From an uncultured Clostridia bacterium (GTDB lineage: Bacteria; Bacillota; Clostridia; Christensenellales; Borkfalkiaceae): DNA of 55,163 nucleotides. Of this stretch, positions 4,104 through 21,674 are shown one piece after another. Both the position numbers and the translations under genes were made by a program. Within the stretch, counting starts at the first letter, position 1. Each line of letters starts with the position of its first letter. The notes below the pieces were generated by a model. The model worked only from the letters and a program-made list of their open reading frames with translations. It ran no database searches and had not been told where the DNA came from. The stretch covers positions 1 to 55,163 of the forward strand of contig CAMEHL010000001.1 of assembly GCA_945917475.1 (NCBI GenBank), given 5' to 3'.

Positions 4104-4110
4104 AAAAGAT

Positions 4111-5220: not shown

Positions 5221-5244
5221 ATTTGAATATAAATTTGAATATAG
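5221..5244. promoter_or_regulatory. Tandem 12-bp repeat in the divergent promoter region; putative XRE operator
   Basis: ATTTGAATATA occurs at 5221-5231 and 5233-5243. The inverted repeats ATACGAG-n5-CTCGTAT and TACGAA-n5-TTCGTA lie nearby, next to a TATAAT upstream of the XRE start. Confidence 0.35.
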
Positions 5245-5324
5245 AAATTTTATTATACAAATATTATATACGAGTATTTCTCGTATGTCAATAATTTTAC
5301 GAAGGTTTTTCGTATAATAATAGT

Positions 5325-5531: not shown

Positions 5532-5533
5532 AA

Positions 5534-5559
5534 GCATCAACAAAAAGTTGATGCTTTTT
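5534..5559 (+). terminator. Rho-independent terminator of the XRE gene
   Basis: GCATCAAC-aaaaa-GTTGATGC followed by TTTTT, starting 3 nt after the stop. Confidence 0.7.
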
Positions 5560-6216
5560 CGTTTGGCTGCTTTGCCCAAAATAGTTGATTTTATCAGCCG
5601 TTTTAAATTTCAGTTTTTCTTTTTTCTCTCCGTTTTACCGCATTACCGTATTATTCAATTTAAAACATTATACATCTTTTATTTTACTTGCGTTATCTTC
5701 ATTTTTCAAGATAATAGAACAGTTGCATTTATTTTTACTTAATTATTTGTTTCAATTGGTTCACTAATTTGGATTCCAACTTTATTCGGGCAATAATTCC
5801 ACGGTAATTTCAAAAACCATTAAGCCGTATCGGGATTGAGCAATTCCATACGCACAACGTAAGTTTTTTTATTGATATGGATATTATAATTTTCACCGAC
5901 GTTTACGGTAACATCTACCTTTCTTATATCGTTTCCCTTCCTTTTGCAACGGTATCGCACGCAAATGCGGACGGATTTCCGTTCTTTTTGACGGGAGCGA
6001 GAACGATTCTCCCCTTCCCACCCCGCTTTCGTTAAAAAAACGGCACGTTGCCTTCGCAGTTGCGAAAGCAGCGCGCCGTACTCCCGAATTCTCAAAGGAG
6101 GTCTGACGTCCGGTTCCCTGTAATATTCGCTTTCCCGGAATGGAATGCCACCGCGGAAACGATATCGCTTGCCGCAAGACAGCCCGTTTTCCTCCCGAAA
6201 AAGAGTGGACGGTCGG

Positions 6217-8160
6217 TCAGTCCGACCTGACGCCCGAGGCGTAGAATCCGATCACGTATCCCGTGATCGTAACGGAATAATTCGCCTGTCCTGCGTCGAT
6301 TTCGTCCGAAACCCTGGGGATATCGCAGGATCCGCTCTCCACGCCGTTGACGTAAATGGTCAGCGTGACGGTCGACTCGTCTCGGGCGATTACGCTCAGT
6401 CCGAGCAAAATCCCCTGATTGAAGACCGAATTGCCGAGATAGGCGGCGTATGTCCTCGGAGAATATTCCTTCGGCGCGCCGTCTTCAACGATGGCGGCGC
6501 GGAATCCGCCTCCGCGGAAATACACGCCATAACTTCCTATCATAAAGAAGGTCCCTCCGTTTCCGTCGTCTTCGACTTTCGCGATGCGTAGTTCGGCGAC
6601 CGTTCCGCCGTAGCCGACCGTTTTTCCGGTAACGGTCGGATTCGCGGCGGTCAAGACGAGCGTTTCCTCTCCTTCCTCCAGCCCGTAGACGTAGTTTTTG
6701 TCGTCGTACTCGAAACCGAAGGGATAACCGACGCCCTCGACGACGATTTCTCCCGAAACCCTTCCGCCGACGAGTCCGGACGGCATATCTTCTTTCGCCA
6801 CGACGATCTCTTTTCCTTCCGCGCGGAAGACTACCGGAACGCCGTTTATGGTCACTGAGGAGACTTCCGCTTCCCTTCCGAGAAGAATGCGGAATTCCGT
6901 ATCTTTCTGCGCCGCAAATTTCGGCTGCGCCGAGACGGAATTTTTACACGGCTTTCCGAACATAATTGCCTTGATATTGTAAATTTCAGTCTCGGTCACC
7001 CCGATGGAAAGCATATAGTTTTCTGTCTTCCGAGAAAGCGTTTCTCCCGCGTAAGTCTTCAGTTTTTCCAGAAACGGTTTAAAATCGTAAACGGTCCCCT
7101 GTGAGTTTCTCTCTCTGTAAATGGAGAAAGAAGTCAGTTCGTAATCCTGAATCAAAGCCGTTTCATCGACTCCGAGAAGGGCATTGATCAGGAAAGAGAC
7201 GGTTCCCGTTCTGTCGGCTCCGCCCGTGCAGTGCAGATAGACGGGATATCTCGAAGGATCTGAAAGGGCGGAAAAAACCTTTCTGTACCCCTCCGCGTCC
7301 GTAAAGGCGGAAAGATATCCTCCTACGTTGTAATATTCAAGCGTCGCGCCGGGAATGGGGCTTTCGGTCAGACCGAGATTTTCGGTTGCATTGCGCAGAT
7401 CGAAATCCGTTTTGATACCGAGCGCTCCGCTCATATACGCTTTGCCGCTTTCGTTCAGCGCTACCTGACGGTAGGCGGGATCGGTACTGTCGGACAAGGC
7501 TCCGCCGCGGAAAAATAAATTCTGAAGCGTTCTTTCACCGCTTTCCGTCGTATACCCGCCGAGGTCTCTCACATTGTAGATACCCCCGACGTTCATAATG
7601 CGCGGTCCGATATCCGTCGTCTCGAAAACCGTCTCCCCGCTCGCCATAATTTCTTCCCCGCAAAGTGCCGTCACGCGAACATAATACTTCGCGGCTTTCA
7701 GCAGATTATACAGGTTGAGCCTGGTCTTATACGCCTCCGTTCCCACTTCGATCGCGTCCGAAAAATCGTTGTTGATCGAATATTCTACCCTTATCGCGGT
7801 CGCGCCTTTATACTTCCCGTTCCATTCCACGGTCACGGGCATATAGGCGTTGTCGGTCAGACAATAATAGTCCGCAAGAAGGGCGCCTTTGCCTGCCGTC
7901 AGATATCCGGTTACGTTTGAGATATACGAAAACACGACTCCGGTCGGAGACGTCACTTCCAGCACCGGATTCTCCTCTTTTTCCTGTTCGGAAGAACTTT
8001 CGGAAACGTTTTCTTTCTCATCCGTTTCGGACGGTAGCGTGCTTTCGGAGATCTTCCCGGATTCTTCGGACGAATCCGTTTTCTGCCCGCATCCCGCGGA
8101 AAAAGCGGCGATTGCCGCTCCGACGAAAAGACACAGGAGAGCGATCGTAAGTTTTCTCAT
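6217..8160 (-). CDS. Exported lipoprotein with a protein-tyrosine-phosphatase-like (Y_phosphatase3-type) domain flanked by beta-sandwich domains
   Basis: Start refined to MRKLTIALLCLFVGAAIAAFSAGC (lipobox) with a GGAGGAG RBS. Ser/Glu-rich linker. NVRDLGGY...FRGG...DLR entry motifs and the catalytic C(X)5R loop LHCTGGADRTG. The C-terminal ~240 aa are jelly-roll-like. Confidence 0.8.
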   Translation of the reverse strand: MRKLTIALLCLFVGAAIAAFSAGCGQKTDSSEESGKISESTLPSETDEKENVSESSSEQEKEENPVLEVTSPTGVVFSYISNVTGYLTAGKGALLADYYCLTDNAYMPVTVEWNGKYKGATAIRVEYSINNDFSDAIEVGTEAYKTRLNLYNLLKAAKYYVRVTALCGEEIMASGETVFETTDIGPRIMNVGGIYNVRDLGGYTTESGERTLQNLFFRGGALSDSTDPAYRQVALNESGKAYMSGALGIKTDFDLRNATENLGLTESPIPGATLEYYNVGGYLSAFTDAEGYRKVFSALSDPSRYPVYLHCTGGADRTGTVSFLINALLGVDETALIQDYELTSFSIYRERNSQGTVYDFKPFLEKLKTYAGETLSRKTENYMLSIGVTETEIYNIKAIMFGKPCKNSVSAQPKFAAQKDTEFRILLGREAEVSSVTINGVPVVFRAEGKEIVVAKEDMPSGLVGGRVSGEIVVEGVGYPFGFEYDDKNYVYGLEEGEETLVLTAANPTVTGKTVGYGGTVAELRIAKVEDDGNGGTFFMIGSYGVYFRGGGFRAAIVEDGAPKEYSPRTYAAYLGNSVFNQGILLGLSVIARDESTVTLTIYVNGVESGSCDIPRVSDEIDAGQANYSVTITGYVIGFYASGVRSD

Positions 8161-8317
8161 GGTTTCTCCTCCATGGTGTTTTGCATTTTTCCTCCTTCCG
8201 CCCACGGCGCATAGACACGCCGGGGCGGTCATAGGAAGAAGTCGTTTTGCGGTCGGCAGGGTCTTCCGTACCGATCCTGTCTTTTTCTTTGCGGGAAATC
8301 CTTCCGATTTCCCGATT

Positions 8318-11300
8318 TTAATCCTTTTTATTCTTCTTTTTCTTCAGGAGATACGCCGCCGCAAGCGCGAGCAGAGAGACGCCGACGATCTCCGATGAAG
8401 AAACCTCTCCGCGACATCCGCCGCCCGAAGAAGTCTGTTCGGAGACGGAAGAATTTTCGTTTTCGGAAGACGATTCGGAAGAATTTTCGTTTTCGGAAGA
8501 CGATTCGGGCTCCGTCTTTTCAAAGACGGCGTAGACCGAAAGGTCGGAACCGATCGCGCTGTCGAAGTCAAACGCGTTCCCGCCGTCGGCAGCAGTAAAC
8601 CATCCTTTAAAGAGGAATCCCTCTTTCTCGGGCGGTTCGGGCATGGCGACACATTCGCCTTCATAAACCTTCTGCGTCTGATAGACAGCGTCTCCGACGA
8701 AGAAAGTCACCGTATAGACGGAAAGTTTTTCAAATTCTTTCTCGCCCAGAGTGATCGTTCCTTCGCCGTAAAAGGCGGTGCGGACGGTTTCTCCCTCCGC
8801 GTATTCCAGAACGTTTTCGGCAAGCAGATAATATGTGAATTGCACGGCTTCGCCTTCGGCGGGAAGATAGACGCCGACGCGGTCTTCCTTCAGTTCGACG
8901 GCGTCGCCGTCCGCGCTGCGGTATTTCCCGTAGAATCCGGCGTACGCGTCTTCCGAGATCTCGTTGCGGACGAACGCCGCGTAGAGCGACGTATATTCCG
9001 TGCTAACGGTTACAACCGCTTCTCCGTTTTCATTCGTCCATCCTTTGAAGAGATAGCCGTCGGGGGCTTCCACAGTCTTTCCGATGGTTTCGCCTTCCAC
9101 GAGCGTTTCTCTTGCCGTCTCATTTCCGTTCACAAAGAAGGCGACTTCCACATAGGCGAATTTAGTGAATACCGATCCGTCCGTGAGATCGATCGTTTCG
9201 TAACGACAATCCTTTCCGGCGAAGATCCTGCCGTCCGACCCGATTTTCACGATATCGTATACGGTATCGGTATAACCGACGAAGTCGATTCCGTCTCCGT
9301 TCACTTCGATCTTTCTGCCGTCTTCGGTTTTATAAACGCCGTACAGAGAATCTTCCGCCGTGAGTTCTGTCCAATAGCCGGTAAGGAGCAATCTCGCGAA
9401 GTCTGTGAAGATCTGCCCCTCCGCCCCACCGACGGAATTCGTCCTTCTGATGCGGAAAGAGGAAATATATCCGTTTTCGTCGGCGAGATCCGACGCGTCG
9501 AGCAGGACGGATACTTTCGTGTTGTCGGCTCCCGTAACGATCTCGCAGACGGGGGAAGCGAAGACGTCGTCCGAAGAAGCGTAGAAACCCGTCGTCGTCA
9601 GATTGTCCGCCGTCGTATTTCCAATCACGAGGCAAAGTTCGATCTGCGAGAAGAGATCCGCTTTATAGTATCCGTCGAGAAGAACGGTCGCGACGTCGTC
9701 GTTGCCGACGCCGGACGTGCAAGCCATCTTAGTAGAGCCGTTTCCGAACAAGCCGAACAGATCGTCGTTTTCATACGTCGCTTCTGTGTTCCCGACGAAC
9801 AGTTTTGCCTGATTTCCGTCGAAATCGAGAGTGAGGTTGGATCCGACGCTCTCGACGTAACGTTTGACGCGGAGCACGACGCAGTCGGCGAAATACTGCG
9901 ATTCAGTCGCGTCCTGCGATTTCCGTATCACGAAGGAACCTACGTATCCGTTTTCATCCGAAATTTTTTCGGGATCGATCGTCAGGACGACGAGTTCGTT
10001 GGACGCGACGGATTCCACTTGGCAGACGGGGGTCGTAAACGCCTTGTCGTATGTGGAATAAACCGTCGTCGTGATCGTCTTGGTCGTGTCGTTGTTACCC
10101 ACGCGGAGTGTCATCTCTACGCTTTCGAGATTTTCCGCCTTGTATTTTTTATCGAGGCGGACGTTGATCGTCTCTCCGTTGCCGATGGCGACGTAGCCGA
10201 GTTGCAGGGAATCGTCGCCGAACAGACCGAAGGAATTGCCTGCTATATATTCTGATTCCTGACCTCTCGCAAACATACGGACCTGATCGCCGTCGACGTC
10301 CAGGTTCACGTCTTTGTCCTGACGCGCGTCGATCGTCTCTCTCGTGTCGATCACCAGTTCGACGTAATCGACGTAATAACCAAGCTCAACGGACCCGTCA
10401 GTCGCCGTCGGGCGAATGAAGAATCCGCCGATATATCCGTTCTCGTCGGCGAGGGTCGACGCGTCGAGAGTGAGAAGGGTTATGGAATAACCGTTTTCCT
10501 GCGAGGCGGAACCTGCGGATACCGTGCACGATGGATCGCTCAGTGCGTAACCCGTCGTTTTGACCTTCAGTCCGTTTCCGTTGGTGGCACAATATCTCAG
10601 GACGACTGATTCGAAGTTTGCCGCCTTGTATTTTTTGGCGAATCTGATCGTCAGAATGTCTCCGCTGATCACTTTATCGCATACGATCAGTTTCGTGCTG
10701 CCGTTGCCGAACTTCATACCGCCCGCATTATCGTCGTGGATCCCGGTCTGGACGTTCCCCTTCACCTGCATCGTCAAGTCGGTTCCGTTCGCGTCGATCA
10801 CGACATTTCTCTCGGGCATTGCGTCTTCATAGGAAAACGCAACCAGCTCTACGGAATCGAAATAATAGCGGATAGAGGAAGTCGCCCCGGTCGCGCGGAT
10901 GACGAAACCCTGAATGTACCCATTCTCATCTGCGATTTTTCCCGGATCGAGAGTCAGCGTCGTCGGCGTATAGTTTCCGCTCTGAACGGAGCTTCCTCCT
11001 CCGTTTTCGAACGCCGCGTCGGTCAGGGAATATCCCGTCGTCGTCACGTTCGAACCGCCTGACCCGCAATAGACCAGTCTCACTTCCCTTATGAAAGAGG
11101 CTTTATACTTTCGGTCGAGTATGACGGACAGATAGTCTCCGTTCGAGAGCATGAAAGAATTCGGACTGCGGATGGCCTTCGTGCTGCCGTTTCCGAAGGC
11201 AATTCCTTCGTTATCGTTTTTGATCGCGCTCGTATCCTTCAGAACCTCGCCGTTCTTTTCCAGCCAGACGTGTTCCAGATCGGCGTCGAGCAGGACGCTC

Positions 11301-11437
11301 TCGCGGATCTCCATCTCTTCCGTTTCCCCATACGCACGTGCGGTGAGGCGAAAGATGCCGATTGCCGAAAACAAGAGACTCAATGCCGCCAGAAAGGCGA
11401 CGGTCAATGTTTTCACTCTGTTGATTCTTTTCTCCAT
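8318..11437 (-). CDS. 1039-aa secreted surface protein: 4 tandem ~150-aa modules, 2 Listeria-Bacteroides (Flg_new/InlB B-type) repeats, acidic linker and C-terminal Gly-Cys/TM/poly-Lys anchor
   Basis: AAGGAG RBS and a signal/anchor helix. Four repeats each end in ADENGYIxGFxIR. FKGWTNENGEAV and FLFKGWFTAADGGNAFDF are Flg_new-like. The tail is GGGCRGEVSSSEIVGVSLLALAAAYLLKKKKNKKD. Confidence 0.85.
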   Translation of the reverse strand: MEKRINRVKTLTVAFLAALSLLFSAIGIFRLTARAYGETEEMEIRESVLLDADLEHVWLEKNGEVLKDTSAIKNDNEGIAFGNGSTKAIRSPNSFMLSNGDYLSVILDRKYKASFIREVRLVYCGSGGSNVTTTGYSLTDAAFENGGGSSVQSGNYTPTTLTLDPGKIADENGYIQGFVIRATGATSSIRYYFDSVELVAFSYEDAMPERNVVIDANGTDLTMQVKGNVQTGIHDDNAGGMKFGNGSTKLIVCDKVISGDILTIRFAKKYKAANFESVVLRYCATNGNGLKVKTTGYALSDPSCTVSAGSASQENGYSITLLTLDASTLADENGYIGGFFIRPTATDGSVELGYYVDYVELVIDTRETIDARQDKDVNLDVDGDQVRMFARGQESEYIAGNSFGLFGDDSLQLGYVAIGNGETINVRLDKKYKAENLESVEMTLRVGNNDTTKTITTTVYSTYDKAFTTPVCQVESVASNELVVLTIDPEKISDENGYVGSFVIRKSQDATESQYFADCVVLRVKRYVESVGSNLTLDFDGNQAKLFVGNTEATYENDDLFGLFGNGSTKMACTSGVGNDDVATVLLDGYYKADLFSQIELCLVIGNTTADNLTTTGFYASSDDVFASPVCEIVTGADNTKVSVLLDASDLADENGYISSFRIRRTNSVGGAEGQIFTDFARLLLTGYWTELTAEDSLYGVYKTEDGRKIEVNGDGIDFVGYTDTVYDIVKIGSDGRIFAGKDCRYETIDLTDGSVFTKFAYVEVAFFVNGNETARETLVEGETIGKTVEAPDGYLFKGWTNENGEAVVTVSTEYTSLYAAFVRNEISEDAYAGFYGKYRSADGDAVELKEDRVGVYLPAEGEAVQFTYYLLAENVLEYAEGETVRTAFYGEGTITLGEKEFEKLSVYTVTFFVGDAVYQTQKVYEGECVAMPEPPEKEGFLFKGWFTAADGGNAFDFDSAIGSDLSVYAVFEKTEPESSSENENSSESSSENENSSVSEQTSSGGGCRGEVSSSEIVGVSLLALAAAYLLKKKKNKKD
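8446..8505. repeat. Perfect 2 x 30-bp tandem duplication inside the linker-coding region
   Basis: GGAAGAATTTTCGTTTTCGGAAGACGATTC occurs at 8446-8475 and again at 8476-8505. It encodes the SSENENSSES repeats. Confidence 0.95.
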
Positions 11438-11518
11438 ATTTATTCTCCTTATCTTTATTATGCGGCGGGCTTGCGTCCGTCCCGCTTTTTCCCGAAATTG
11501 CGCTACGCAGGCAGCCTG

Positions 11519-13114
11519 TCAGAGTTCGCTGACGGAAACGAGATTCCTGTACACGTTGAAATACAGGGTCGGTTTTTCGCCGTACGGAAGGATCTCACAT
11601 TCGAGTTCCTCGATGCGTTCGGTTTTCCCTTCGACGTAATCCTTAAGTCTGTCCCGACAAGACGAAAGCCTAAGCCGAAGACCCCCGATACGTGCCTCGT
11701 GCACTTCGAAGCCGAAAGGTTCGTTCTCAATGAACCATAGCCTTTTAAATTGTCCGTAAAAGCGGTCCAGGCGTACGACTATCTCGTCCAGTTCGCCGAC
11801 GAGAGGCGTCAGAGCGGCTCTCTCTCCGCTTGCGTACCGTTTGCGTACGCGGACTCCAAAGTCGTATTTCAGTTCGAGTACCGAGCACAGGGAAGAGATG
11901 AAATCGAACAGATAGCGGTATTCCCCCGCTTTCTTCCCCGCCTCGTCTACGGCTTTTGCGTATTCCCCGTAAGGGATCCTGCCCTCCTGTCCGACGAGAT
12001 CGTCCAGAATACCGAGAAAAGGATCGCAATAGAGAAGCGCCTTGCAGGGTGTTTCGAGATCTTCGTGTTTCACGGGAAGAAGATTGGGCAGATCCAACGC
12101 CGTGAACGCCTCGAACGGAATGCCGAAAAGTTGTTCAAAGCCCCGCGTGATTTCCTCCTCGTCTTCTACGCCATCGGCGTAACGGCTGACGGCATACAGA
12201 GAGGGAAGCAGGGCGAAAAAGGAACATTCCTTGCCGTTGTCTCCCCACATCGTGATGAGAACGTTTTCCACCCGATTGCGCTTTGCCGCCGTCAGCGCGG
12301 CTTTCATAGATCTCATCGTATAGCCGTTAAACGGGGCGAATCCTCCCCAGCACCATGCTCCGCCGGCGAACCATGATTCCCTGTTGAACGCCTTATGGGA
12401 GGACATCATGGCGTCGTAATCGTCGATTTCAGTATGATAATAATCCCAATATACGGGGCTGACGTTCCCGGGTACTCTTGCGATCACCAAAGGGGAAAGT
12501 TTTACTCCTTTATCGTAATATTTTCCGTTGTTTCCGAGTTTGAAGAGCATATCGCTCCAGGCGTGTGCGTTAAAGCCGTATTTCTCGGCTATCTCCGCGA
12601 CCCTTTCCAGGTGATAGAGGATCAGGTCGTATCGGTCCCGATAGCCGTTTTTATCGAGATATTGTCCGAGCCCCGCCATATGCGCTTCGTCCATGCCGAT
12701 GTTGACGAGGTTCGAGGAAAATGCCTCCCTCAGCGTGGCGAACATTTTATCTATGAGGGCGTAGGTCTTCTCGTCGCCGATCATCAGAATATCGCCCACG
12801 TCCACGATATCGGCGTAATGCGGAAGTTTTACCAGGTTGGTGAAATGCGCCAGCGTCTGGATCGCGGGGACGAGTTCGACGTTTTTCCCGCGGGCGTACG
12901 CGTCGAGTTCTTGCAGCGTCTTCTTGGAATATCCGCCGCGCAAATATCCGAAATAAGGTTCGCTTTCGATACGGAAGGTATCTTCCAGATACAGTTCGAG
13001 CACATTATATCCCATAGCGGAAATATCGTCGATGAATTTTTTGATTTGTCCCGGCTTCATCACGGCGTTGCGCGAACAGTCGATCATCACGCCGAAGCGT
13101 TTAAAATTTTTCAT
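11519..13114 (-). CDS. GH20-like beta-N-acetylhexosaminidase family protein, cytoplasmic (no signal peptide)
   Basis: GVMIDCSRN..., LVPAIQTLAHF and NIGMDEAH fit the GH20 TIM-barrel pattern (mLDvsRh / PEiD.PGH / GgDE). ATG at 13114 preferred over the TTG at 13135. Confidence 0.85.
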   Translation of the reverse strand: MKNFKRFGVMIDCSRNAVMKPGQIKKFIDDISAMGYNVLELYLEDTFRIESEPYFGYLRGGYSKKTLQELDAYARGKNVELVPAIQTLAHFTNLVKLPHYADIVDVGDILMIGDEKTYALIDKMFATLREAFSSNLVNIGMDEAHMAGLGQYLDKNGYRDRYDLILYHLERVAEIAEKYGFNAHAWSDMLFKLGNNGKYYDKGVKLSPLVIARVPGNVSPVYWDYYHTEIDDYDAMMSSHKAFNRESWFAGGAWCWGGFAPFNGYTMRSMKAALTAAKRNRVENVLITMWGDNGKECSFFALLPSLYAVSRYADGVEDEEEITRGFEQLFGIPFEAFTALDLPNLLPVKHEDLETPCKALLYCDPFLGILDDLVGQEGRIPYGEYAKAVDEAGKKAGEYRYLFDFISSLCSVLELKYDFGVRVRKRYASGERAALTPLVGELDEIVVRLDRFYGQFKRLWFIENEPFGFEVHEARIGGLRLRLSSCRDRLKDYVEGKTERIEELECEILPYGEKPTLYFNVYRNLVSVSEL

Positions 13115-13156
13115 AGCGTTTGTTTCTCTTTTCAAAGAATAGGTAGATAAGACGGT

Positions 13157-14002
13157 TCAGCCTTTGATTCCGCCGACGGAGATGTTCTCCATGATCTTTT
13201 TGCTGAACGCCGCAAAGAATATCAGCATGGGAACTATCACGACCGTCGCTCCCGCAAATATCTTCGGCCAATCGGAAGTCTTTTGAAATTTCACAACCAG
13301 CATCTGCAACCCAACGGCGACGGTCGGTTTCGAGCGCAGAAAGAGATATTGAGAAAAATAGTCGTTCCACGCGCTGATGAAGGAGATCAGGAAGAACGCG
13401 AGCACTCCCCCGAGCACCTGCGGCAGCATAATCTGAAAGAACACCCTGCAGTGCCCTGCGCCGTCGATGAAAGCCGATTCGGCATACGTCCAGGAAACCG
13501 AACGGAAATAGGAGTACAGGTAGAGAAACACCCCTCCGAAGCCTCCTTGCATCAGAAACATTCCGAGAAACCGATTCAATAGTCCGGTCTTATACAGGAG
13601 ATTGTAAGTTGCCGAAAGAGAACCCGTCGTCGGGATCATCATGCACACAACTACCATCAAATAAATAAAACCGCTTCCCTTGAAAGGGTATTTGGCGATG
13701 ACGTAAGAAGTCATGCAGGAGAGCATAATCCCGATAGTGGTTCCGACCCCGACAAGAATCAGGCTGTTGCGGAACATACCGAGCAGGTTCGTTCTCTGGA
13801 ATTCCGTTTCGAATACCGTCCGGTAATTTTCAAGAGTAAATTCTTTCGGAAACGACCATATATTCTCAAAGAACTCCCTGGAGGTTTTGAAACTGTTGTA
13901 AAACATCATCAGAAAAGGAAACACCAACGAGATCGCGTACAAAAGGAATACGACGAAGACGATTGAAAGGGTAATCCGTTCGTTTTTCGGTCTGCGCATC
14001 AT
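13157..14002 (-). CDS. Carbohydrate ABC transporter permease (MalG/LplC-like)
   Basis: 6-TM binding-protein-dependent permease pattern (ESAFIDGAGHCRVFFQIMLPQ is the EAA loop). The start MMRRPK at 14002 forms an ATGA overlap with the upstream stop. Confidence 0.9.
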   Translation of the reverse strand: MMRRPKNERITLSIVFVVFLLYAISLVFPFLMMFYNSFKTSREFFENIWSFPKEFTLENYRTVFETEFQRTNLLGMFRNSLILVGVGTTIGIMLSCMTSYVIAKYPFKGSGFIYLMVVVCMMIPTTGSLSATYNLLYKTGLLNRFLGMFLMQGGFGGVFLYLYSYFRSVSWTYAESAFIDGAGHCRVFFQIMLPQVLGGVLAFFLISFISAWNDYFSQYLFLRSKPTVAVGLQMLVVKFQKTSDWPKIFAGATVVIVPMLIFFAAFSKKIMENISVGGIKG

Positions 14003-16539
14003 CTCGTCTCTCCTTTTTTCACGATAGCGACACCCGCGGCAAGAAGAGCGAGTACGCTCCACGCGGAGGATACCGACGAGCGGCACCCCGTCCCTTCGGC
14101 GGGTTCGGGTTCTTCCGTCTTCACGTTCACGACGACGCAGAGTTCCTCTCCGTACTGATTGCGGATATAGAAGTTACGGCTTCCGTCGGGAAATTTCCGG
14201 AGAAATTCTTTTTTGATGACGACGACATTCGCGTCGGCGTCGACCACGTAATCATCTTCGGTGATTCTGGAACCGATGACTTCGAATTCGTATCTGCCAA
14301 CCCCGATGGAAAAAGATACGTCTTCGGGCGCGGCTTTATTGAAGGAGACGCGGTCGCTCCCGTTGATTTTCAGATCGGGATAATTGGCGGGGTCGTACAG
14401 TTCGTCGAGATTTTCCACACGAACGTTATCGACTGAAAAATTCGTCCAGTTTGTGGAAGAAAACGACATATAGCCCGCCGTTTCGGTATCGTCGAGGGAG
14501 ACAAGAGTCCGCCATTGCGTATCGTCGTCCGCCCAGAGTTTGTATTCGAGGGTAACCGTTCTGTCTTTCGCCGTAATGCGCACGGAAAGCGGGGCGTCGA
14601 CGGGAGCGTTCACCGTTGCGACGGCGGAACCGTCGAAAGCGGGAATCTGCCAGCCCGTCACCGTAAATTCCGAACGGGCGGGGTCCTCCGTTTTTCTCCT
14701 CGTCATCAGGAGAGTCTGCACGGAAGACGCGGCAAAACTGCTGTTGAGAGATCCCTTGCGGAAAGAAAAACCGATCCACGGCGCGGCGGGAGTATAAATG
14801 CGTACCCCGTCGCTCTCCGTGTACGTCGCTTCATCCTGAAAACTCATGAGATCGAAAGAGAATCTCCAATCGCCATAGGAATACTTCGGACCGAAAGAAG
14901 ATCCGTCGCCCGTGCGGTCGAATTTCATCACGCCGTCTTCGAATTTCACGCCTGATTCCGCCGTATAACGCGGCTGATCCTTCGCCTCTTCGGGAACGAG
15001 GTCGTTCGACAACCGAACGGCGCCGTCTGTCGAAACGTTCCATTTCCCGACGTCCGGCATACCTCCGTCGAAATCGGCAGTCATCGTCCTGCCCGCATAT
15101 TCGGCGTAAGAGTACGCGTTAATCTTCAGATCGTCGATATAGAAACTCGTCGGATTCTCCGTGAAATTACCGATGGACAGATATCCCGCAACGTCTTCAA
15201 GCCCGATCTCCGCCGTGACGGAACTTCCTCCGACAGACGTGCGGAAAAGAAATCCGCCGGGCGCTTTTTCCACGGCGAAGCAGATTTCCCGCGCTTTCTC
15301 AGCGACAAGTTGTTCCGCCGTTTTGCTCGCGGCAAGTTCTCCTCCGACGTAAATTTCAATCTGCGTTTTACCCTCTTTCAGAGCGAATCCCGCCGTCACT
15401 CCCCTTCCGGTGTCGTAACGACCGACCTGACTGCCGCCGAAAAACGCACCGATGAGATTTCCCTGAGAAAGCGCGGGCAGACAAACCGTGAAAGAGACGT
15501 CGAGAAGGGTCCCTCCGACGTTTCCGTCGGGCGAGATCTCTTTCCTCAGTCCGATCAGGTCGTTGGCGTCCGCGTCCGTAAAGGAGACGTCCGATATTTC
15601 GGAAAAACCGACGGATTTCGCGCTGAGCCCGTAAGCGCAAAGACCTTCGGACAAAGTCCGATCTTCGAAGTCGGCTTCGGCAATGACCGATTTTATTTCC
15701 ATTCCCGTAGAGGAGATTTTGGAAAACCTCACGTTGTCGAGAGTAACGCTTCCGCCTTCGTTGACGCCAACGTCCTCGACGTTGATGCCGACGTAACCGT
15801 CTCCGATGCGGAATTGAGAGGAGAAACCGCCGGCGATCGCCTGCGCAACGCCGTTTGCCGTCACGCGGAACTTCCGCACGTCCTCCCCTTCGAAATTGTA
15901 TAGACCGTCTTCGCAGACGGGCAGAAGACGGACGTCGATCGCCGTCTGCTCACCCGTCGCGTCCGAACGGAAGATTTGTCTGACACGATACGCTTTTTCG
16001 GATAAATCGACGCTTCCCGCAGGCGATTTCCGCCATTCGCCGCCGATATATTCCTCCGCGAATTTTGCGTCCCCTCCCGCGCTCTCGAAAGTGAACGTAC
16101 GGGAAGACGGACCGGCATAATAACCGAAAGTGTTCGCGTAGGCGTAGTTGCATTCCCACGCCGAGGAGTCCGAAAAAGTAACCCCCTGCATGACGCCGAA
16201 ATGAACGGTTGAGGAGGAGACGCCCGAAACGTCGAATTCCGCCATCAGATCCTCATCCGCCGCAAACGTAACGGGAGAGATCGTGGCGACGGCGTTTACG
16301 TTATTGCCCGCCGTCTCGTAACCGGAGAGACAAAGGGCAACGCCGCTTCCTCCGCGGTAAGTGATCCCGTCGCCCGTTACCACCCAGTCTCCTCCCGTCA
16401 GGGTAGTCGACGTGACGGCGTCGTCAACGATAACTTTTTTATCGCTCGCGGCAAACGCGGAAAAGTTTCCGTTGGAGACGAAAAGAAAGATTCCGGCAGC
16501 GAGAAGCGCCGCGCCCGTTTTCAAGATATGGTTTCTCAT
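13999..16539 (-). CDS. 846-aa secreted surface protein with jelly-roll (LamG-like) modules and a C-terminal Gly-Cys/TM/basic anchor
   Basis: Start MRNHILKTGAALLAAGIFLF with a GGAGGA RBS. Module ends LDNVRFSKI, IDDLKINAY and VDNVRVENL. The tail is EGTGCRSSVSSAWSVLALLAAGVAIVKKGETR. Confidence 0.85.
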   Translation of the reverse strand: MRNHILKTGAALLAAGIFLFVSNGNFSAFAASDKKVIVDDAVTSTTLTGGDWVVTGDGITYRGGSGVALCLSGYETAGNNVNAVATISPVTFAADEDLMAEFDVSGVSSSTVHFGVMQGVTFSDSSAWECNYAYANTFGYYAGPSSRTFTFESAGGDAKFAEEYIGGEWRKSPAGSVDLSEKAYRVRQIFRSDATGEQTAIDVRLLPVCEDGLYNFEGEDVRKFRVTANGVAQAIAGGFSSQFRIGDGYVGINVEDVGVNEGGSVTLDNVRFSKISSTGMEIKSVIAEADFEDRTLSEGLCAYGLSAKSVGFSEISDVSFTDADANDLIGLRKEISPDGNVGGTLLDVSFTVCLPALSQGNLIGAFFGGSQVGRYDTGRGVTAGFALKEGKTQIEIYVGGELAASKTAEQLVAEKAREICFAVEKAPGGFLFRTSVGGSSVTAEIGLEDVAGYLSIGNFTENPTSFYIDDLKINAYSYAEYAGRTMTADFDGGMPDVGKWNVSTDGAVRLSNDLVPEEAKDQPRYTAESGVKFEDGVMKFDRTGDGSSFGPKYSYGDWRFSFDLMSFQDEATYTESDGVRIYTPAAPWIGFSFRKGSLNSSFAASSVQTLLMTRRKTEDPARSEFTVTGWQIPAFDGSAVATVNAPVDAPLSVRITAKDRTVTLEYKLWADDDTQWRTLVSLDDTETAGYMSFSSTNWTNFSVDNVRVENLDELYDPANYPDLKINGSDRVSFNKAAPEDVSFSIGVGRYEFEVIGSRITEDDYVVDADANVVVIKKEFLRKFPDGSRNFYIRNQYGEELCVVVNVKTEEPEPAEGTGCRSSVSSAWSVLALLAAGVAIVKKGETR

Positions 16540-16555
16540 CTTTTTTCCTCCGTTT

Positions 16556-17512
16556 TCAGTATTCGACCGCAGGTACGAATTTATCGATAACGAACTTCGC
16601 GGCAAGGATAAGCGGCGTGCCGACGATCGCCGCGCACCAGCCGATCGTAGCGGATTCGTTCAGTTTGCCGGAAGAGACCCTGTCCGAGATCAGGTAGCCG
16701 ATCGTATATCCCTCGCCCGAAGGTCCTCCGTTCGTCAGGAGCATTGAAGGGAGAAAATAGGTAAAGGAAACGGCGATCCCCATCATGAACATCGTCGAAA
16801 CGGTAGACATGCTTAGAGGAACGACAATCTGAAGAAATTCGTGAGTCATATTGATACCGTCTATTTTCCCTGCTTCCATGACCTCGGGCGGGATCCTTGA
16901 GATCGCGCTCGTCAGCATGAGTACGTTATAGCCGATACCCGACCAAAGGGAATAGAGCAGAACCATCGGAAAGACGGTGGAAGAGTCTCCGAACCACCCG
17001 TTTTCCGGGATGAGATTCCCAAGTCCGATTCCTTTCAGCATTCTGTTCACGGGACCGTAATTGGTACTGAACAGGAAGGAAAAAACCATACACAGCGCAA
17101 CGGGCATAATGATGGAAGGCAGATAATAGATAATGCGGAAAGCCTTTTCTCCCCATATTTTTTTATAGAAATAATAAGCGCACAGGAGAGAAACGGGCAG
17201 CAGAACGAAGGTATTCCATAAAAAGATATACAAACTGTTCCGTATGCCGTAGCGGTATTGCGGATGAGAATCCGGGCTGAAAAACGCTTTGAGAACGTTT
17301 TCAAAATTCATGAATCCCACGTAGACGTAATCCCCTTGCTCGTAACTGTACGTCTGAAAAGCAAGTTTGAGGGAATCGGCGTTCACGTAAACGAAAAACA
17401 CCAGCCAGTTGAGCACGGGATACGCGAGAAAGGCGATGATGAACGCCGTTCTTTTGCGCCTCGCGCTGTTTATATTTCTTTTTTTTGGCAAAACGCCTTT
17501 CTGATTATCCAT
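16556..17512 (-). CDS. Carbohydrate ABC transporter permease (MalF/LplB-like)
   Basis: Start MDNQKGVLPKKRN (17512). Multi-TM, with EAA-like loop EAGKIDGINMTHEFLQIVVP. Confidence 0.9.
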   Translation of the reverse strand: MDNQKGVLPKKRNINSARRKRTAFIIAFLAYPVLNWLVFFVYVNADSLKLAFQTYSYEQGDYVYVGFMNFENVLKAFFSPDSHPQYRYGIRNSLYIFLWNTFVLLPVSLLCAYYFYKKIWGEKAFRIIYYLPSIIMPVALCMVFSFLFSTNYGPVNRMLKGIGLGNLIPENGWFGDSSTVFPMVLLYSLWSGIGYNVLMLTSAISRIPPEVMEAGKIDGINMTHEFLQIVVPLSMSTVSTMFMMGIAVSFTYFLPSMLLTNGGPSGEGYTIGYLISDRVSSGKLNESATIGWCAAIVGTPLILAAKFVIDKFVPAVEY

Positions 17513-17517
17513 TTCAG

Positions 17518-18906
17518 TTATCCTTTTATCGGTATGACGAAGACCGCGTCGCCGGGATCGAGTGTCTTCGTGAAGGAGCCTCGATCGAGCGTGACGACGG
17601 AGGACTCGCCTCTGTACCACACGATCGCCCGATCCGCGTCGTTGAACGTCACCGTGAAAGCGTTGACTTCGTCGAGGTTCCCGGGATTGTTGTAGTTCAT
17701 CATATAAAACCCGTCGTAACCGCTTCCGTCGCGGAAGACGCCGACGGATAGATCTTTGCTGCTTGTAAGCGAGGAAATGCGCGGATGACTCTCCATCGGT
17801 CGGCGTACCTGACGGAAAGATGTGCTGATCTTGTTTCCGTTATCCGTCCCGTTGCTCAGCATGATTCCCTGCCAGTCGAAGGAAAGAAGAACGTGATCGA
17901 AAGCGAGAACTTCGCGATTTACCGTACGGCAGTCCTTCCACAATTCGGTCACCGTGCCATCTCGCATGATCATCGCATGCATGTTTTCCGTCTGGATGAC
18001 GGAATCGTACGGCTGCCAGTAGCAGAAATGGTTGATGCCGTCCGCCCCGAACATCAGCGCCGCGTTGGTCATAAATCGCAGATCCTGAATATTCGGCTGT
18101 TTGATAGAAGAGTTGAATCCCATCGAACCGATAAAGGCGAAGAAGGGGACGTCGTATAATTTCGCGTTTTCGGCGTAAAGTTCGTAATCGGCGAGCAAGC
18201 CCGTGTACAGGACGGGTTTCGCCGTGCTTCCCTTCAGAGGATAGTAGTCGACGGACAGCAGATCGGGGGAAACCCGGTCGATAAAATTCTGCAGATAATA
18301 TTCGTAACCCGAGGTCGTTCCGAGGCTTCCCGAAGACGCGTAGGATGGAAACAGGTTTACGAAGAAGTATTTATCCGGAAAGGCTTTGACGTACGTCTTC
18401 TTCAGCGCGCCGATCGCGTCGAAGCGGTCGACGCTCGGTTCATCGTAAACGTGATGCCCTAAAAACGCGGGGTGTTCGTTGTAAGAGGCGGTTATGCGGA
18501 GCAGATCTTCCGCCGTCGTGTTGGGGTCATACGTCTCGGGACGCACGTCGTAATCCATGACAAGCAGGCGAATCCCCGCCGCATCGGCGTAATCCAGAGC
18601 CTTGAAAAAAGCCTCCTGATCTCTGTTTTTTTCTTCATAGACGCATATTCCGACGTTGATGCCGCAATCCGCCATCTCCAGATATCTTTCCTCCGTCTGA
18701 AAATCGTACGTCGGATCGTCGACGGAAGTCGTCTGTCTCGGCGGCGGAGGATTCCATCCGCCGATCCACATGACTCTTTCCGTCTTGTAAGCGGAATAAT
18801 CGGGCATTCCCGAAGGAACGACATATCCGCCGCCCTCTCCTTTATTTTCGCAGGAAGCAAAGAGCAACGTTCCGACGAGCACGAGGGACAATAATCTCTT
18901 TTTCAT
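17518..18906 (-). CDS. Lipoprotein, putative TIM-barrel glycoside-hydrolase-like enzyme; family unassigned
   Basis: Lipobox LLFASC. The alternating pattern ...GINVGICVYEE...GIRLLVMDYD...HHVYDEPS...FFVNLFPSY...LLSVDYYPL suggests a (beta/alpha)8 fold. No family-diagnostic motif recognised. Confidence 0.65.
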   Translation of the reverse strand: MKKRLLSLVLVGTLLFASCENKGEGGGYVVPSGMPDYSAYKTERVMWIGGWNPPPPRQTTSVDDPTYDFQTEERYLEMADCGINVGICVYEEKNRDQEAFFKALDYADAAGIRLLVMDYDVRPETYDPNTTAEDLLRITASYNEHPAFLGHHVYDEPSVDRFDAIGALKKTYVKAFPDKYFFVNLFPSYASSGSLGTTSGYEYYLQNFIDRVSPDLLSVDYYPLKGSTAKPVLYTGLLADYELYAENAKLYDVPFFAFIGSMGFNSSIKQPNIQDLRFMTNAALMFGADGINHFCYWQPYDSVIQTENMHAMIMRDGTVTELWKDCRTVNREVLAFDHVLLSFDWQGIMLSNGTDNGNKISTSFRQVRRPMESHPRISSLTSSKDLSVGVFRDGSGYDGFYMMNYNNPGNLDEVNAFTVTFNDADRAIVWYRGESSVVTLDRGSFTKTLDPGDAVFVIPIKG

Positions 18907-18921
18907 GATTTCCTCCGTCCG

Positions 18922-20301
18922 TTATATCTGTTTCTGCCAACTGCTCCAATCTTTCTGAACCTGTTCGTAATCGTAACGTACGATCTGTTCGGCGGTCTGC
19001 CCTTCCGTCACCATCTGCGTCACCATTTTCGTCTGCCAGAAAGACGCCAGCCCCGAATAAATGAACGGAGAACTGCCCTCGGAGTAGAAAATATTTTTCT
19101 CCGAACGAAGCGCGAGTACCGATCTGCTCCATTCGGTCATGTCGTCCGATACCGCTTTCGAGTAGTCGACTTTAAATGCGCTCGTCGTGTTGGTCGTACG
19201 GAAAAGGTCGAGCAAACCCTCTTCGCTGAAAATAAACGAGACGAACTTCTTTGCAGCGTCCTTATTCTGTGCGGCGGCAGGAATGATCAACCATTCGTCC
19301 ACATGCCCGTAAAGATTATCGGACTCCTTGCTTCCCTCGATCGACGGAGGAGCGATCAACGCCATCTCAAACCCTTCCGGCATATTGCTCGCGATTTCCG
19401 TTTCCAGCCAGGATGCGTTGGGAAGCATCACCGCCTGCCCGGCCGCAAACATCATCTGCGAGTCTGTCAGGTTGAGCCCGATGACGCCCGGCGCACAGTT
19501 TTTCGGCGTGCCGTTTCCTCCGATCAGCGTCAGCAGGGCGTCGACCGCCTTTATTCTCGCTTCAGTGTAATAGACTTCGGGACTTTCCATCTGCTTGAAC
19601 GTGGAAATTTCGGAGATCCCCCCGTAATTAGCCCACCAGGTATTCATGATATAATTCCAATAATATTGAGCGTTCACGCCCGACCAGACGAAGGGATATA
19701 CGTCGTTGCCGCCGTCTGCGTCGTGATTTTCGGGCAGAGCGTTGATTTTATCGACGATATCGAGCATATCGGTCATGGTTTTGGGGAGATCCCAACCGTG
19801 CTCGTCGAAAAAGCCCTTGTTTACCGCGATCCCCGTCATATATTCGGAGAAAGGAATGGCGTAATACTCGTTTTTGAAAAGAAGATTATCGGCGATTTCA
19901 TCGTTGAGCGCTTCTTCCATTGTCATCGAAGAATTAAATTCCGACCGGTATACATCTCCCAACGGCTCGAGCCAGCCTTTGGAGGCAAACAGTCTCCACG
20001 TCATGGGCGAAGTGATGATGTCGGGGGTTATGCCCGTCATGAGGGTGTTTTCCAACGCCATTCCGTAAGCGGGGTCTCCCTCGAGAATCAATTCCACCTT
20101 TTCGTTCGGGTGCGCCGCGTTGTAAAGCGCTTCCCACGATTTCCAGTGCGAATCGAGAAAAGCTCCTTCGTAATATCCCACGTAAATCTGTTCGACGCCG
20201 TTACTTCCCTTGTTTGCGTTTGACCCGCAACCCGCACTCAGCGCAAGGACGGCAGCCAAAGCCGTGGGTAAAAACCTCTTTACCCTGTTCATTCTCTTCA
20301 T
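18922..20301 (-). CDS. ABC transporter extracellular solute-binding lipoprotein (sugar-type)
   Basis: Lipobox LALSAGC. 459 aa. First gene of the transporter operon. Confidence 0.9.
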   Translation of the reverse strand: MKRMNRVKRFLPTALAAVLALSAGCGSNANKGSNGVEQIYVGYYEGAFLDSHWKSWEALYNAAHPNEKVELILEGDPAYGMALENTLMTGITPDIITSPMTWRLFASKGWLEPLGDVYRSEFNSSMTMEEALNDEIADNLLFKNEYYAIPFSEYMTGIAVNKGFFDEHGWDLPKTMTDMLDIVDKINALPENHDADGGNDVYPFVWSGVNAQYYWNYIMNTWWANYGGISEISTFKQMESPEVYYTEARIKAVDALLTLIGGNGTPKNCAPGVIGLNLTDSQMMFAAGQAVMLPNASWLETEIASNMPEGFEMALIAPPSIEGSKESDNLYGHVDEWLIIPAAAQNKDAAKKFVSFIFSEEGLLDLFRTTNTTSAFKVDYSKAVSDDMTEWSRSVLALRSEKNIFYSEGSSPFIYSGLASFWQTKMVTQMVTEGQTAEQIVRYDYEQVQKDWSSWQKQI

Positions 20302-20362
20302 ATTGCCTCCTTCGGCGGCTTTTTATCCGCTCTATCTCTTTTTCTTTTTAAAAATTAACTTG

Positions 20363-20402
20363 GTTAGTTTATTGCGTAGAATAACGTTTGACAAAAACTA
20401 AC
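20363..20402. promoter_or_regulatory. Inverted repeat in the operon leader; candidate ROK-regulator operator
   Basis: GTTAGTTT (20363-20370) and AAACTAAC (20395-20402), a perfect 8-bp inverted repeat immediately downstream of the predicted -10. Confidence 0.35.
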
Positions 20403-20408
20403 ATAATT

Positions 20409-20437
20409 ATAATATCACAGATCAGAGGCGTTGTCAA
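20409..20437 (-). promoter_or_regulatory. Promoter of the high-GC glycan operon
   Basis: On the minus strand: TTGACA (20437-20432), 17-nt spacer, TATTAT (20414-20409) preceded by TGa (extended -10). An A/T-rich UP-like tract with a duplicated TTTTTCCGAAAAA lies upstream. Confidence 0.5.
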
Positions 20438-20473
20438 TATTTTTCCGAAAAATTTTTTTCCGAAAAAAAACAT

Positions 20474-20502
20474 AAAAAAACGCAGATAAAATCTGCGTTT
20501 TT
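20474..20502. terminator. Bidirectional-looking rho-independent terminator after the ROK gene
   Basis: CGCAGAT-aaa-ATCTGCG flanked by an A-run (20474-20480) and a T-run (20498-20502). Confidence 0.65.
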
Positions 20503-20522
20503 GAATATTTTACACAAAGATG

Positions 20523-21674
20523 TCACTGTTTTTTGTTGAGAATTTCCTCAAAAGCGGATAGTCCGACCGAGACCGCTCCGTTGTAAACCTCATCTCTCTT
20601 TCTGAGAAAAGAGACCTCGATTTTCGAGCACGTCGGGCTATGCGAAAACAATCGGTTGAGTTTTCCGGCAACGAACGGTTCCAGACGGACGAACTCACCC
20701 GCAAACATAATGTGAGAGATGTCGAGAAGTTCAGTGACGCTCCATAAAAATCTGCCGAGAACGCCTACGGCTTCATCCAGACAGGACAAAGCCGTTTCAT
20801 CCTTCCGTCCGCAGGCGGCAATGAAATCCTCTTTCGCCTCTTCATAACGGACTTCGGGTTTTCCCGCGCAGCGGCGGTAGCGATCCGCAACGCTTTTCAC
20901 CGAAAGAAGAGTGGAAAAAATCTCGCTCCGGTCGTTCGGAAAGAAATCGGTCGCGGTCATAGGATTCATACCGAACAACCCGAACTCGCCCGCCATTCCG
21001 TGTTCGCCTGCAAAGATATGCTTTTCGCAGACGATTCCGCCTCCGACGCCTTCGTCGATATACAGATAAAGAAAACTGTCGGGAGACGACGCGTCGCACG
21101 TCGCCGCCTGCACTGCCGTGAACATATCGTTTTTCATGATAACGGGCGAACCGATTTTTCCCGAAAGAGTTTCCGAAAAATTCTCCCCGTAAAATTCCGC
21201 AAATTTCCCGGCGAACACGAAACGGTCCGTCTTGCAGTCGTATTTCCCGGCGAATACGAAAACTGTGTGTTTCGGTCGTAACGCAACCTTTTTCATGTCT
21301 TCGACGGCGGCATCCAATATTTCTCTTTTGACGACGTAACCCGTCTGGTACTCTTTCTTGTAAACGACGTTTCCGACGAAGTCGTTGACGGTGACGGTCA
21401 TGACATCACTGTGCGCGAGAATGACCGCAAAATATCCGAACGCGGGATTCGGCGTAATAATTTCTGCCTTTCTTCCCGCGGTGGAAGACGGCAGGCGGTT
21501 ACGCAGAACCAGCCCGGCCTCGGTCATCGCCGAAACGATTTTGAATATCGCGGCGTTGGAAAGCCCCATGATGTTTTCCAGTTCGGCAAAGGTTTTCCCT
21601 CCGCCGCGTATCGCCCGCAACACGGATTTCATGTTTGAAATACGGATATATTCTTGTCTTCTGCCAGGTTTCAT
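20523..21674 (-). CDS. ROK-family transcriptional regulator (NagC/XylR-like)
   Basis: N-terminal winged HTH (RISNMKSVLRAIRGGGKTFAELENIMGLSNAAIFKIVSAMTEAGLV) followed by a ROK sugar-kinase-like fold (GIVCEKHIFAGEHGMAGEFG). Confidence 0.9.
   Translation of the reverse strand: MKPGRRQEYIRISNMKSVLRAIRGGGKTFAELENIMGLSNAAIFKIVSAMTEAGLVLRNRLPSSTAGRKAEIITPNPAFGYFAVILAHSDVMTVTVNDFVGNVVYKKEYQTGYVVKREILDAAVEDMKKVALRPKHTVFVFAGKYDCKTDRFVFAGKFAEFYGENFSETLSGKIGSPVIMKNDMFTAVQAATCDASSPDSFLYLYIDEGVGGGIVCEKHIFAGEHGMAGEFGLFGMNPMTATDFFPNDRSEIFSTLLSVKSVADRYRRCAGKPEVRYEEAKEDFIAACGRKDETALSCLDEAVGVLGRFLWSVTELLDISHIMFAGEFVRLEPFVAGKLNRLFSHSPTCSKIEVSFLRKRDEVYNGAVSVGLSAFEEILNKKQ

Follow-up and report, generated by a model that had tools for sequence, protein, structure and literature searches.

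The two tails described here end two large proteins encoded on contig CAMEHL010000001.1 (assembly GCA_945917475.1) of an uncultured Clostridia bacterium of the lineage Christensenellales; Borkfalkiaceae. The whole stretch analysed, positions 1 to 55,163 of this contig, is referred to below as the window. Each of the two proteins, of 1039 and 846 amino acids (aa), terminates in a Gly-Cys signature, a hydrophobic segment and a basic cluster. In gut Clostridia, this conserved tail serves glycan-binding surface proteins as a portable module for sorting or anchoring. Its relatives are the Cys-containing signals MYXO-CTERM (GC_trans_RRR), Synerg-CTERM, JDVT-CTERM and CGP-CTERM, and we consider it somewhat probable that the tails are copies of a Lys-rich relative of these signals that is lipidated and cleaved in the manner proposed below.

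Two proteins of the window end in the same tail

The window holds two open reading frame (ORF) ends with a common layout, in which G-C-R-x-x-V-S-S is followed by a 15-residue hydrophobic run and a basic cluster. This layout had been noted in the original prediction, and the intervals given there, 8318..8431 and 13999..14097, correspond exactly to the tails and their stop codons. The acidic and Pro-rich linkers said to precede the tails were also found as described. The elements of both tails are as follows.

8318..8431, minus strand: tail of the 1039-aa protein and stop codon, from the six-frame ORF scan, SSGGGCRGEVSSSEIVGVSLLALAAAYLLKKKKNKKD
8402..8419, minus strand: signature G1007-C1008-R-G-E-V of the 1039-aa protein, with the Gly-Cys codons at 8414..8419
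8345..8389, minus strand: hydrophobic segment of the 1039-aa protein (15 aa), IVGVSLLALAAAYLL
8321..8344, minus strand: basic, predicted cytoplasmic cluster of the 1039-aa protein, KKKKNKKD
8426..8515, minus strand: low-complexity Ser/Glu/Asn-rich (acidic/Ser-rich) linker preceding the tail of the 1039-aa protein
13999..14097, minus strand: tail of the 846-aa protein and stop codon, from the six-frame ORF scan, EGTGCRSSVSSAWSVLALLAAGVAIVKKGETR
14071..14088, minus strand: signature G818-C819-R-S-S-V of the 846-aa protein, with the Gly-Cys codons at 14083..14088
14020..14064, minus strand: hydrophobic segment of the 846-aa protein (15 aa), AWSVLALLAAGVAIV
14002..14019, minus strand: basic cluster of the 846-aa protein, KKGETR
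14089..14121: Glu/Pro linker of the 846-aa protein

Only these two ORF ends combine Gly-Cys, a hydrophobic stretch and a basic tail in a six-frame scan of the 55-kilobase (kb) window. The pattern GC[RK]xx[VILA][ST][ST] matches twice in the whole window, both times in these tails, and its back-translated form GGNTGYMGN(7)GTNWSNWSN also matches twice, at 8397..8419 and 14066..14088. Dinucleotide shuffles yielded a mean of 0.03 matches to the back-translated pattern, and none of the 100 shuffles reached two. When the 1039-aa and 846-aa proteins are compared by BLASTP, the best segment is the tail, and the bodies are otherwise unrelated. The observation of a shared tail is therefore confirmed as real and clearly non-random.

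Given that the tails are short and of low complexity, and that the BLASTP match over the tail segment alone has E=0.084, their likeness could be attributed to chance or to a recent local duplication. However, two matches were found where 0.03 were expected, and dozens of divergent proteins, encoded on other contigs and belonging also to unrelated families, carry the motif at the corresponding position. The DNA of the tails also differs between the two copies (GGATGTCGCGGAGAGGTTTCTTC versus GGGTGCCGCTCGTCGGTATCCTC), which argues against a recent DNA duplication. The comparative data thus exclude chance, and we regard this explanation as a whole as very improbable.

The tail is conserved among orthologues and carried by unrelated proteins

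Presence of the motif in orthologues had been set beforehand as a test of the prediction. For the 846-aa protein, 29 of 30 full-length homologues (48-99% identical) keep G-C-x-S-[S/A]-V, the helix and the K/R residues, and the linker directly upstream of the tail diverges freely among the orthologues. The tail also ends 12 of 18 homologues of the 1039-aa protein (27-96% identical). Because the other six end in different, non-membrane C-termini, the tail behaves as a swappable module.

The motif was expected on other proteins too, and it is present on about ten cargo families that are unrelated by BLAST. Inspection of neighbouring genes revealed new cargo in the form of a 684-aa Flg_new protein (locus L007), a 564-aa protein (L010), a 689-aa beta-helix protein (L012) and a 441-aa protein (L014). 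Further tails end proteins of 661-799 aa (L018, L022 and L024), and three tail genes lie within 16 kb in L026. There are two or three tail genes per locus, nearly always adjoining genes for sugar ATP-binding cassette (ABC) transporters or glycosidases. A filter that is blind to Gly-Cys, and that demands only a hydrophobic end and a basic end, was run over every ORF of the related loci. Among large non-permease proteins, it returned Gly-Cys tails only, and its one other match was a 151-aa raw ORF (L023).

A 35-position profile of the tail was compared with 1.84 billion representative proteins and gave 12 matches at E<=1e-3. Each of these proteins terminates in the tail, and several of the bodies are new, among them those of a Big_2, a FIVAR and a 533-aa protein. 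After removal of the tails, an all-against-all BLASTP comparison of the cargo (E<1e-5) resolved ten separate groups. A word-indexed search with a 10-tail profile, an approach that is too insensitive for a 35-residue module, retrieved one related fragment and otherwise VPETG sortase substrates of Oscillospiraceae. A contig search with the 1039-aa protein recovered only a partial Flg_new match in a metagenome-assembled genome (MAG) of Bacilli (L006). In metagenome DNA, a degenerate pattern for G-G-C-x-S-S-V-S would by our estimate match by chance thousands to hundreds of thousands of times, enough to hide the genuine copies.

The tail-bearing contigs come from human-gut metagenomes, and no source names other than Christensenellaceae/'Ca. 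Borkfalkiaceae' and 'Clostridia bacterium' were obtained. One protein that clusters with the 1039-aa protein (at least 90% identity) is likewise named from a 'Candidatus Borkfalkiaceae' / Christensenellaceae MAG.

A separate case was encountered in L024, where a 1141-aa protein (1071-4493) carries SGCNGAI about 27 residues upstream of its C-terminal helix, with a charged spacer between the two. This could be a version of the tail signal that has diverged or degenerated.

Consensus and predicted topology of the module

A position table built from 50 unique tails gives the signature [G/S]-G-C-x-[S/G]-S-V-[S/G/A], followed by about 21 uncharged residues and then K/R. The Gly at position -1 and the Cys at position 0 each occur in 50/50 tails, so the Gly-Cys pair is invariant, as had been proposed. 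Gly is also common at position -2 (31/50). On the other side of the Cys, position +2 is Ser or Gly in 49/50 tails, position +3 is Ser in 36/50, position +4 is Val in 42/50, and positions +5 and +6 are Ser, Ala or Gly. The Arg after the Cys had been listed as a signature residue, and this detail did not hold. A 96%-identical copy has Leu there, and across the 50 tails position +1 varies among G, K, F, N, L and R. Arg therefore lies outside the signature, the core of which is G-C-x-[S/G]-S-V-S.

The uncharged run that begins after Cys+1 has a median length of 21 residues, or about one membrane span, and the eight residues that follow it contain a median of four K/R. With about 21 uncharged residues before the basic cluster, the Cys is predicted to sit at the outer membrane surface. 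Pro occurs at +8 in 10/50 tails and Gly at +11 in 27/50, and both are taken to be helix-destabilising. A second Cys near the first is found in P0011, P0012 and P0020, and both window tails have a single Cys.

Comparison with known sorting signals

We scanned the models of NCBIfam release 20.0 (June 2026) against 21 tails at E<=10 and against 35 diverse tails at E<=0.1. In neither set does any curated sorting-domain model cover the tail family. The prediction had pointed to the Cys-containing MYXO-CTERM-type signals as kin, and by model scores these are indeed the nearest known relatives: the MYXO-CTERM models are the best-scoring curated models that bear the motif, and several models of the MYXO-CTERM protein families match tails weakly. 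On the 846-aa tail, TIGR03901 (MYXO-CTERM) reaches 14.8 bits against a cut-off of 20, and neither TIGR03901 nor TIGR03382 matches the 1039-aa tail. The sole tail to pass is that of P0112, with 16.0 bits on TIGR03382 (GC_trans_RRR) against a cut-off of 15.85. Among the 35 diverse tails at E<=0.1, there is one match to TIGR03382 and one to TIGR03901.

The tails resemble MYXO-CTERM, the signal processed by the CPBP-family myxosortases MrtX, MrtC and MrtP, in their extreme C-terminal position and tripartite plan, with a Gly-Cys whose Cys is invariant, an uncharged helix and a basic cluster. As in MYXO-CTERM, a genome places the signal behind low-complexity linkers on numerous secreted proteins that are unrelated to one another. 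The second Cys in some tails (P0011 and P0012) also recalls the GCGC form of MYXO-CTERM. They differ in coming from gut Clostridia, whereas MYXO-CTERM is restricted to Myxococcota, in having a Lys-rich rather than an Arg-rich basic cluster, and in their extended x-[S/G]-S-V-S signature. In addition, the outer-membrane or type II secretion step is presumably absent for the tails. We do not file the tails as members of MYXO-CTERM, because they were tested against both the cut-off of the hidden Markov model (HMM) and the taxonomic range of that family, and neither fits.

Four Cys-containing tripartite signals, MYXO-, JDVT-, Synerg- and CGP-CTERM, have been described by Haft, who predicted a cognate CPBP/Rce1-like protease for each (bioRxiv 10.1101/2023.06.07.544157). 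Guo, Haft and Wall found that MrtX cleaves MYXO-CTERM in a Cys-dependent manner, also in E. coli, and they propose that the Cys is lipidated first, Lgt being the leading candidate for this step, and that the cut then falls just behind it (PMC11980579). Synerg-CTERM and its protease MrtS offer a further parallel, given that this signal has a Ser/Gly-rich cluster ending in an invariant Cys and essentially no charged spacer before the membrane span (10.1101/2023.06.07.544157). Synerg-CTERM differs from the tails in the invariant Pro of its Leu-rich helix, a residue that is not invariant in the tails, and in its limitation to Synergistales with a dedicated type II secretion system (T2SS); the best score on its model, TIGR04564, is 10.4 bits against a cut-off of 22.5.

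The signal recognized by sortase A is another natural comparison, since it too occurs in Gram-positive-type hosts and runs from a linker through a short hydrophobic stretch into Lys/Arg residues. The tails lack its pentapeptide: as had been noted at the outset, no LPXTG-like sequence precedes their hydrophobic stretch, and their invariant residue is a Cys. TIGR01167 (LPXTG_anchor) matches the 1039-aa tail with 19.1-19.3 bits over profile positions 15-34, which make up the transmembrane (TM) and basic half of the model. Across the tails, this helix and basic half scores 19-22 bits, with alignments that begin at position 6 at the earliest, so that only the later part of the profile is involved.

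These matches bear on the possibility that a transpeptidase-type enzyme (sortase-like, exosortase/archaeosortase-like or rhombosortase-like) cleaves the tail and attaches the protein to peptidoglycan, to a glycopolymer or to the head group of a phospholipid, with no lipidation of the Cys. The tripartite layout would suit such an enzyme, as would the match of the helix and basic part to TIGR01167, which brings 8 of 35 tails to E<=0.1, and the small residues after the motif together with the Gly and Pro of the helix would also suit a rhomboid-type protease. However, LPXTG, NPXTG, PEP and Gly-Gly motifs are absent, and the LPXTG_anchor match is limited to the later part of the profile. The GlyGly-CTERM model has no match at E<=10 among the 21 tails, and for PEP-CTERM there is neither a Pro-Glu-Pro motif nor a model match in either set of tails. 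No gene for an enzyme of this type is present in any locus examined, and the invariant Cys is the hallmark of the class processed by CPBP proteases (10.1101/2023.06.07.544157). Because the corresponding motifs and models do not fit, we judge attachment by a transpeptidase to be improbable.

Two other Cys-containing elements were also considered. The lipobox of bacterial lipoproteins, on which Lgt and LspA act and which directly follows the h-region of an N-terminal signal peptide, likewise places an invariant Cys, preceded by a small residue, at the outer interface of the membrane. The original prediction spoke of a lipobox-like element, and this description holds for the shared [G]-C alone. 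In the tails, the -3 and -4 positions, which are hydrophobic in the lipobox [LVI][ASTVI][GAS]C, are K, S or G, and the topology is a mirror image, with a C-terminal element whose helix follows the Cys. The eukaryotic/archaeal CAAX box processed by Rce1 (CPBP) also has a Cys near the C-terminus, for which lipidation is proposed to come first, with a glutamic intramembrane protease then cutting directly behind this residue. Unlike the tails, CAAX boxes are cytosolic, comprise four residues and are prenylated, whereas the tail Cys is predicted to be extracytoplasmic, and about 30 residues, a membrane helix among them, lie beyond it.

In summary, an invariant-Cys signature, a TM helix and a basic cluster are found together on about ten unrelated cargo groups, at two or three per locus. 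We regard the tails as a new variant of the Cys-containing tripartite class, closest to MYXO-CTERM, with no covering model or paper in the literature searched; in particular, that literature contains no description of a Firmicutes Cys-type CTERM signal or of a 'C-terminal lipobox'.

A proposed route of lipidation and cleavage

On the basis of these likenesses, we propose the following route for the tail proteins. The precursor is predicted from its N-terminal signal peptide to be exported by Sec, after which the tail helix would hold it in the cytoplasmic membrane, with the K/R cluster inside and the Gly-Cys at the outer surface. By analogy with the signals discussed above, the Cys thiol would then probably receive a lipid, and an intramembrane protease resembling myxosortase, a membrane-embedded endopeptidase that would cut just after the Cys, would probably remove the helix. 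The likeliest enzyme would be a 'myxosortase-like' protease of the CPBP/Rce1 type encoded elsewhere in the genome. Such processing would leave the glycan-binding protein tethered by a C-terminal lipid to the outer face of the membrane, beside its cognate sugar ABC importer. The operon that carries the tail genes also encodes lipoproteins with lipoboxes (FSAGC, LFASC and LSAGC), and therefore machinery of the Lgt/Lsp type is expected in the host. A bolder claim, to which we give somewhat less than an even chance, is that this is the first Cys-type sorting system of Bacillota, in which a GC-x-S-S-V tail is lipidated on its Cys and clipped by a dedicated membrane protease, yielding glycan-capture proteins with a C-terminal lipid anchor on abundant human-gut Christensenellales.

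The sorting enzyme that the original prediction had acting on the Gly-Cys was sought in three ways: by Pfam comparison of about 35 proteins, mainly those of the window, by precomputed Pfam lists for 18 loci, and by a scan of loci L001-L024 and the window for multi-TM proteins and CPBP motifs. These searches yielded only ABC permeases, an EamA transporter, an Asp-Al_Ex permease and a few unassigned multi-TM ORFs that lack CPBP motifs. Unannotated ORFs adjoining tail genes in L007 and L010 were considered as membrane enzymes and rejected, as they are soluble or lipoprotein glycosidase-like proteins. If many substrates are scattered over a genome, the absence of an enzyme gene from the loci is unsurprising.

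Nevertheless, several observations weigh against lipidation and cleavage of the tail. Genes for CPBP (PF02517), rhomboid, sortase or exosortase proteins are lacking from the 55-kb window and from about 25 related loci (about 0.4 Mb in total), so that the part of the prediction that called for an enzyme found no candidate gene there. The comparison with CTERM sorting-domain models that had been suggested leaves the window tails below every curated CTERM cut-off, and they rise above one only with the generic TM/basic half of LPXTG_anchor. To our knowledge, Cys-type C-terminal signals have so far been described in diderms (Myxococcota, Synergistota and the hosts of JDVT-CTERM) and in Thermococcales archaea. 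The bacterial systems of this type that we know of are diderm and use a T2SS, which a monoderm would lack. The genes for both window proteins lie on an island that appears to be horizontally acquired or mobile (see below), and the present host might lack the cognate enzyme; in this host, therefore, the tails might work only as anchors. Finally, P0076, a 54%-identical orthologue of the 846-aa protein, ends in a plain 23-residue membrane helix, NPLLFVYIIAGIAVVAISTTVTVIYVRKKGAKH, that lacks Gly-Cys, and thus simple membrane anchoring seems to suffice.

The last of these points leads to the main, serious rival, in which the tail is an uncleaved type I membrane anchor that holds the protein in the cytoplasmic membrane and the Gly-Cys/small-residue motif serves another purpose. 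This purpose could be S-acylation without cleavage, helix-helix packing between the tail proteins of a locus, or docking to the ABC transporter. Besides the plain helix of P0076, such an anchor would account for the pairing or tripling of tail proteins per locus, beside or between permease genes and in one case with a 4-nucleotide (nt) overlap, for the lack of a nearby gene for a processing enzyme in the window and related loci, and for the small-residue run S-S-V-S-A, which could be a packing face. However, the Cys is invariant in secreted proteins of an anaerobe, where disulfides are expected to be unlikely. The hydrophobic cores are also short, at 15 residues in both window tails, and the frequent Gly and Pro of the helix give it a composition like that of cleaved signals, as the scores on the TM/basic half of LPXTG_anchor illustrate. 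The architecture as a whole matches that of signals shown to be cleaved (PMC11980579). With these considerations in mind, we hold an uncleaved anchor to be unlikely, and continue to favour lipidation and cleavage at the Gly-Cys.

Implications

If lipidation and cleavage are borne out, the Cys-type C-terminal sorting class would extend into Bacillota, and Gram-positive-type cells would have a third route of protein display, besides sortase and the N-terminal lipobox. Since the outer-membrane and type II secretion steps should be absent in Clostridia, lipidation and cleavage could be studied there in isolation. These large tail proteins are currently annotated as 'hypothetical' or 'InlB B-repeat', and their tail identifies them as glycan-binding proteins that are displayed at the surface and partner sugar ABC importers in Christensenellales, a group that has repeatedly been linked to host health. 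An HMM of the tail would improve the annotation of many gut metagenome proteins, and would allow its cognate enzyme to be found by phylogenetic profiling.

The two cargo proteins

Both proteins carry an N-terminal Sec-type signal peptide, and their coordinates and organization are as follows.

8318..11437, minus strand: cargo 1 (1039 aa), with a Sec-type signal peptide, repeats, linker and tail
13999..16539, minus strand: cargo 2 (846 aa), with a signal peptide, beta-sandwiches, an Ig-like domain, linker and tail

Cargo 1 contains four tandem repeats of about 160 aa and two Listeria-Bacteroides (Flg_new) repeats. The ~160-aa repeats, which lie within aa 1-690, have no match in Pfam and are marked by a DENGY[IV]xxFxIR motif at aa 170, 331, 494 and 653. 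Homologues of this protein have two to six such repeats, with the tail present or absent. The ORF of cargo 2 spans 13999..16605, and its probable start (MRNHILK, ATG at 16539) gives the length of 846 aa. This protein has tandem beta-sandwich domains of the concanavalin-A/LamG/galectin-like type and an Ig-like (CBM_X2-like) domain. Its AlphaFold model (mean predicted local distance difference test score, pLDDT, of 67) shows the tandem beta-sandwiches, for which the best PDB matches are laminin-G, galectin and legume-lectin-like domains. Given the repeats of the first protein and the lectin-like folds modelled for the second, both look like glycan-binding surface proteins that serve a locus for the import of N-acetylhexosamine (HexNAc) glycans. 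Their lectin-like and repeat regions probably capture HexNAc-containing glycans for the GH20 enzyme and ABC transporter encoded in this locus.

Operon and genomic island

6217..21674, minus strand: operon context, an island of 53% guanine-plus-cytosine (G+C) content

The genes of this operon encode, in order, a ROK regulator, a solute-binding lipoprotein, a 462-aa lipoprotein, a permease, cargo 2, a second permease, a GH20 hexosaminidase, cargo 1 and a 671-aa phosphatase-like lipoprotein. A matching gene order is found in L007-L009 and L017-L024. The 846-aa gene shares 4 nt (ATGA, 13999..14002) with the ABC permease gene downstream of it, its stop codon overlapping the ATG of that gene. The 846-aa gene, itself not a transporter gene, is wedged between two permease genes, an arrangement that is kept in L001, L007-L009 and L017-L025.

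Two of the lipoproteins deserve mention. The 462-aa lipoprotein (17518-18906) has no Pfam match and is conserved between the binding protein and the first permease. It ends in ...VFVIPIKG, like the tail-less homologues of the 1039-aa family and proteins of L010 and L026, and it may represent an unclassified glycosidase-like family. The 671-aa lipoprotein (6217-8232) combines a Y_phosphatase3 (protein-tyrosine-phosphatase-like) domain with an fn3-like domain. Its gene closes the glycan-utilization operon, for which an extracellular partner of this kind is unusual.

The island, at about 6.1-21.7 kb, has a G+C content of 52-55%, whereas the remainder of the contig is at about 40%. On either side of the island lie stretches of 32-33% G+C (4000-6000 and 22000-24000) with small ORFs, including one for an XRE-type helix-turn-helix (HTH) protein at 5325-5531. 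The right junction is confirmed in the independent metagenome assemblies L003 and L004. A truncated copy of the island in L025 occurs in another low-G+C context, where its neighbours are genes of the WYL, HTH, ATP-dependent DNA ligase and prim-pol-like types.

None of the large predicted surface proteins encoded in the native low-G+C part of the window (38910-52438; 641, 679, 1015, 573 and 916 aa) has a Gly-Cys tail, and these proteins carry N-terminal lipoboxes or signal anchors instead. Adjoining the island, the native low-G+C region at 24046-29966 encodes a second GH20 paralogue, GH39, NagA-like and NagB-like enzymes and a PfkB kinase. Because HexNAc genes are thus already present in the native region, the island adds a second HexNAc-glycan system beside the existing one.

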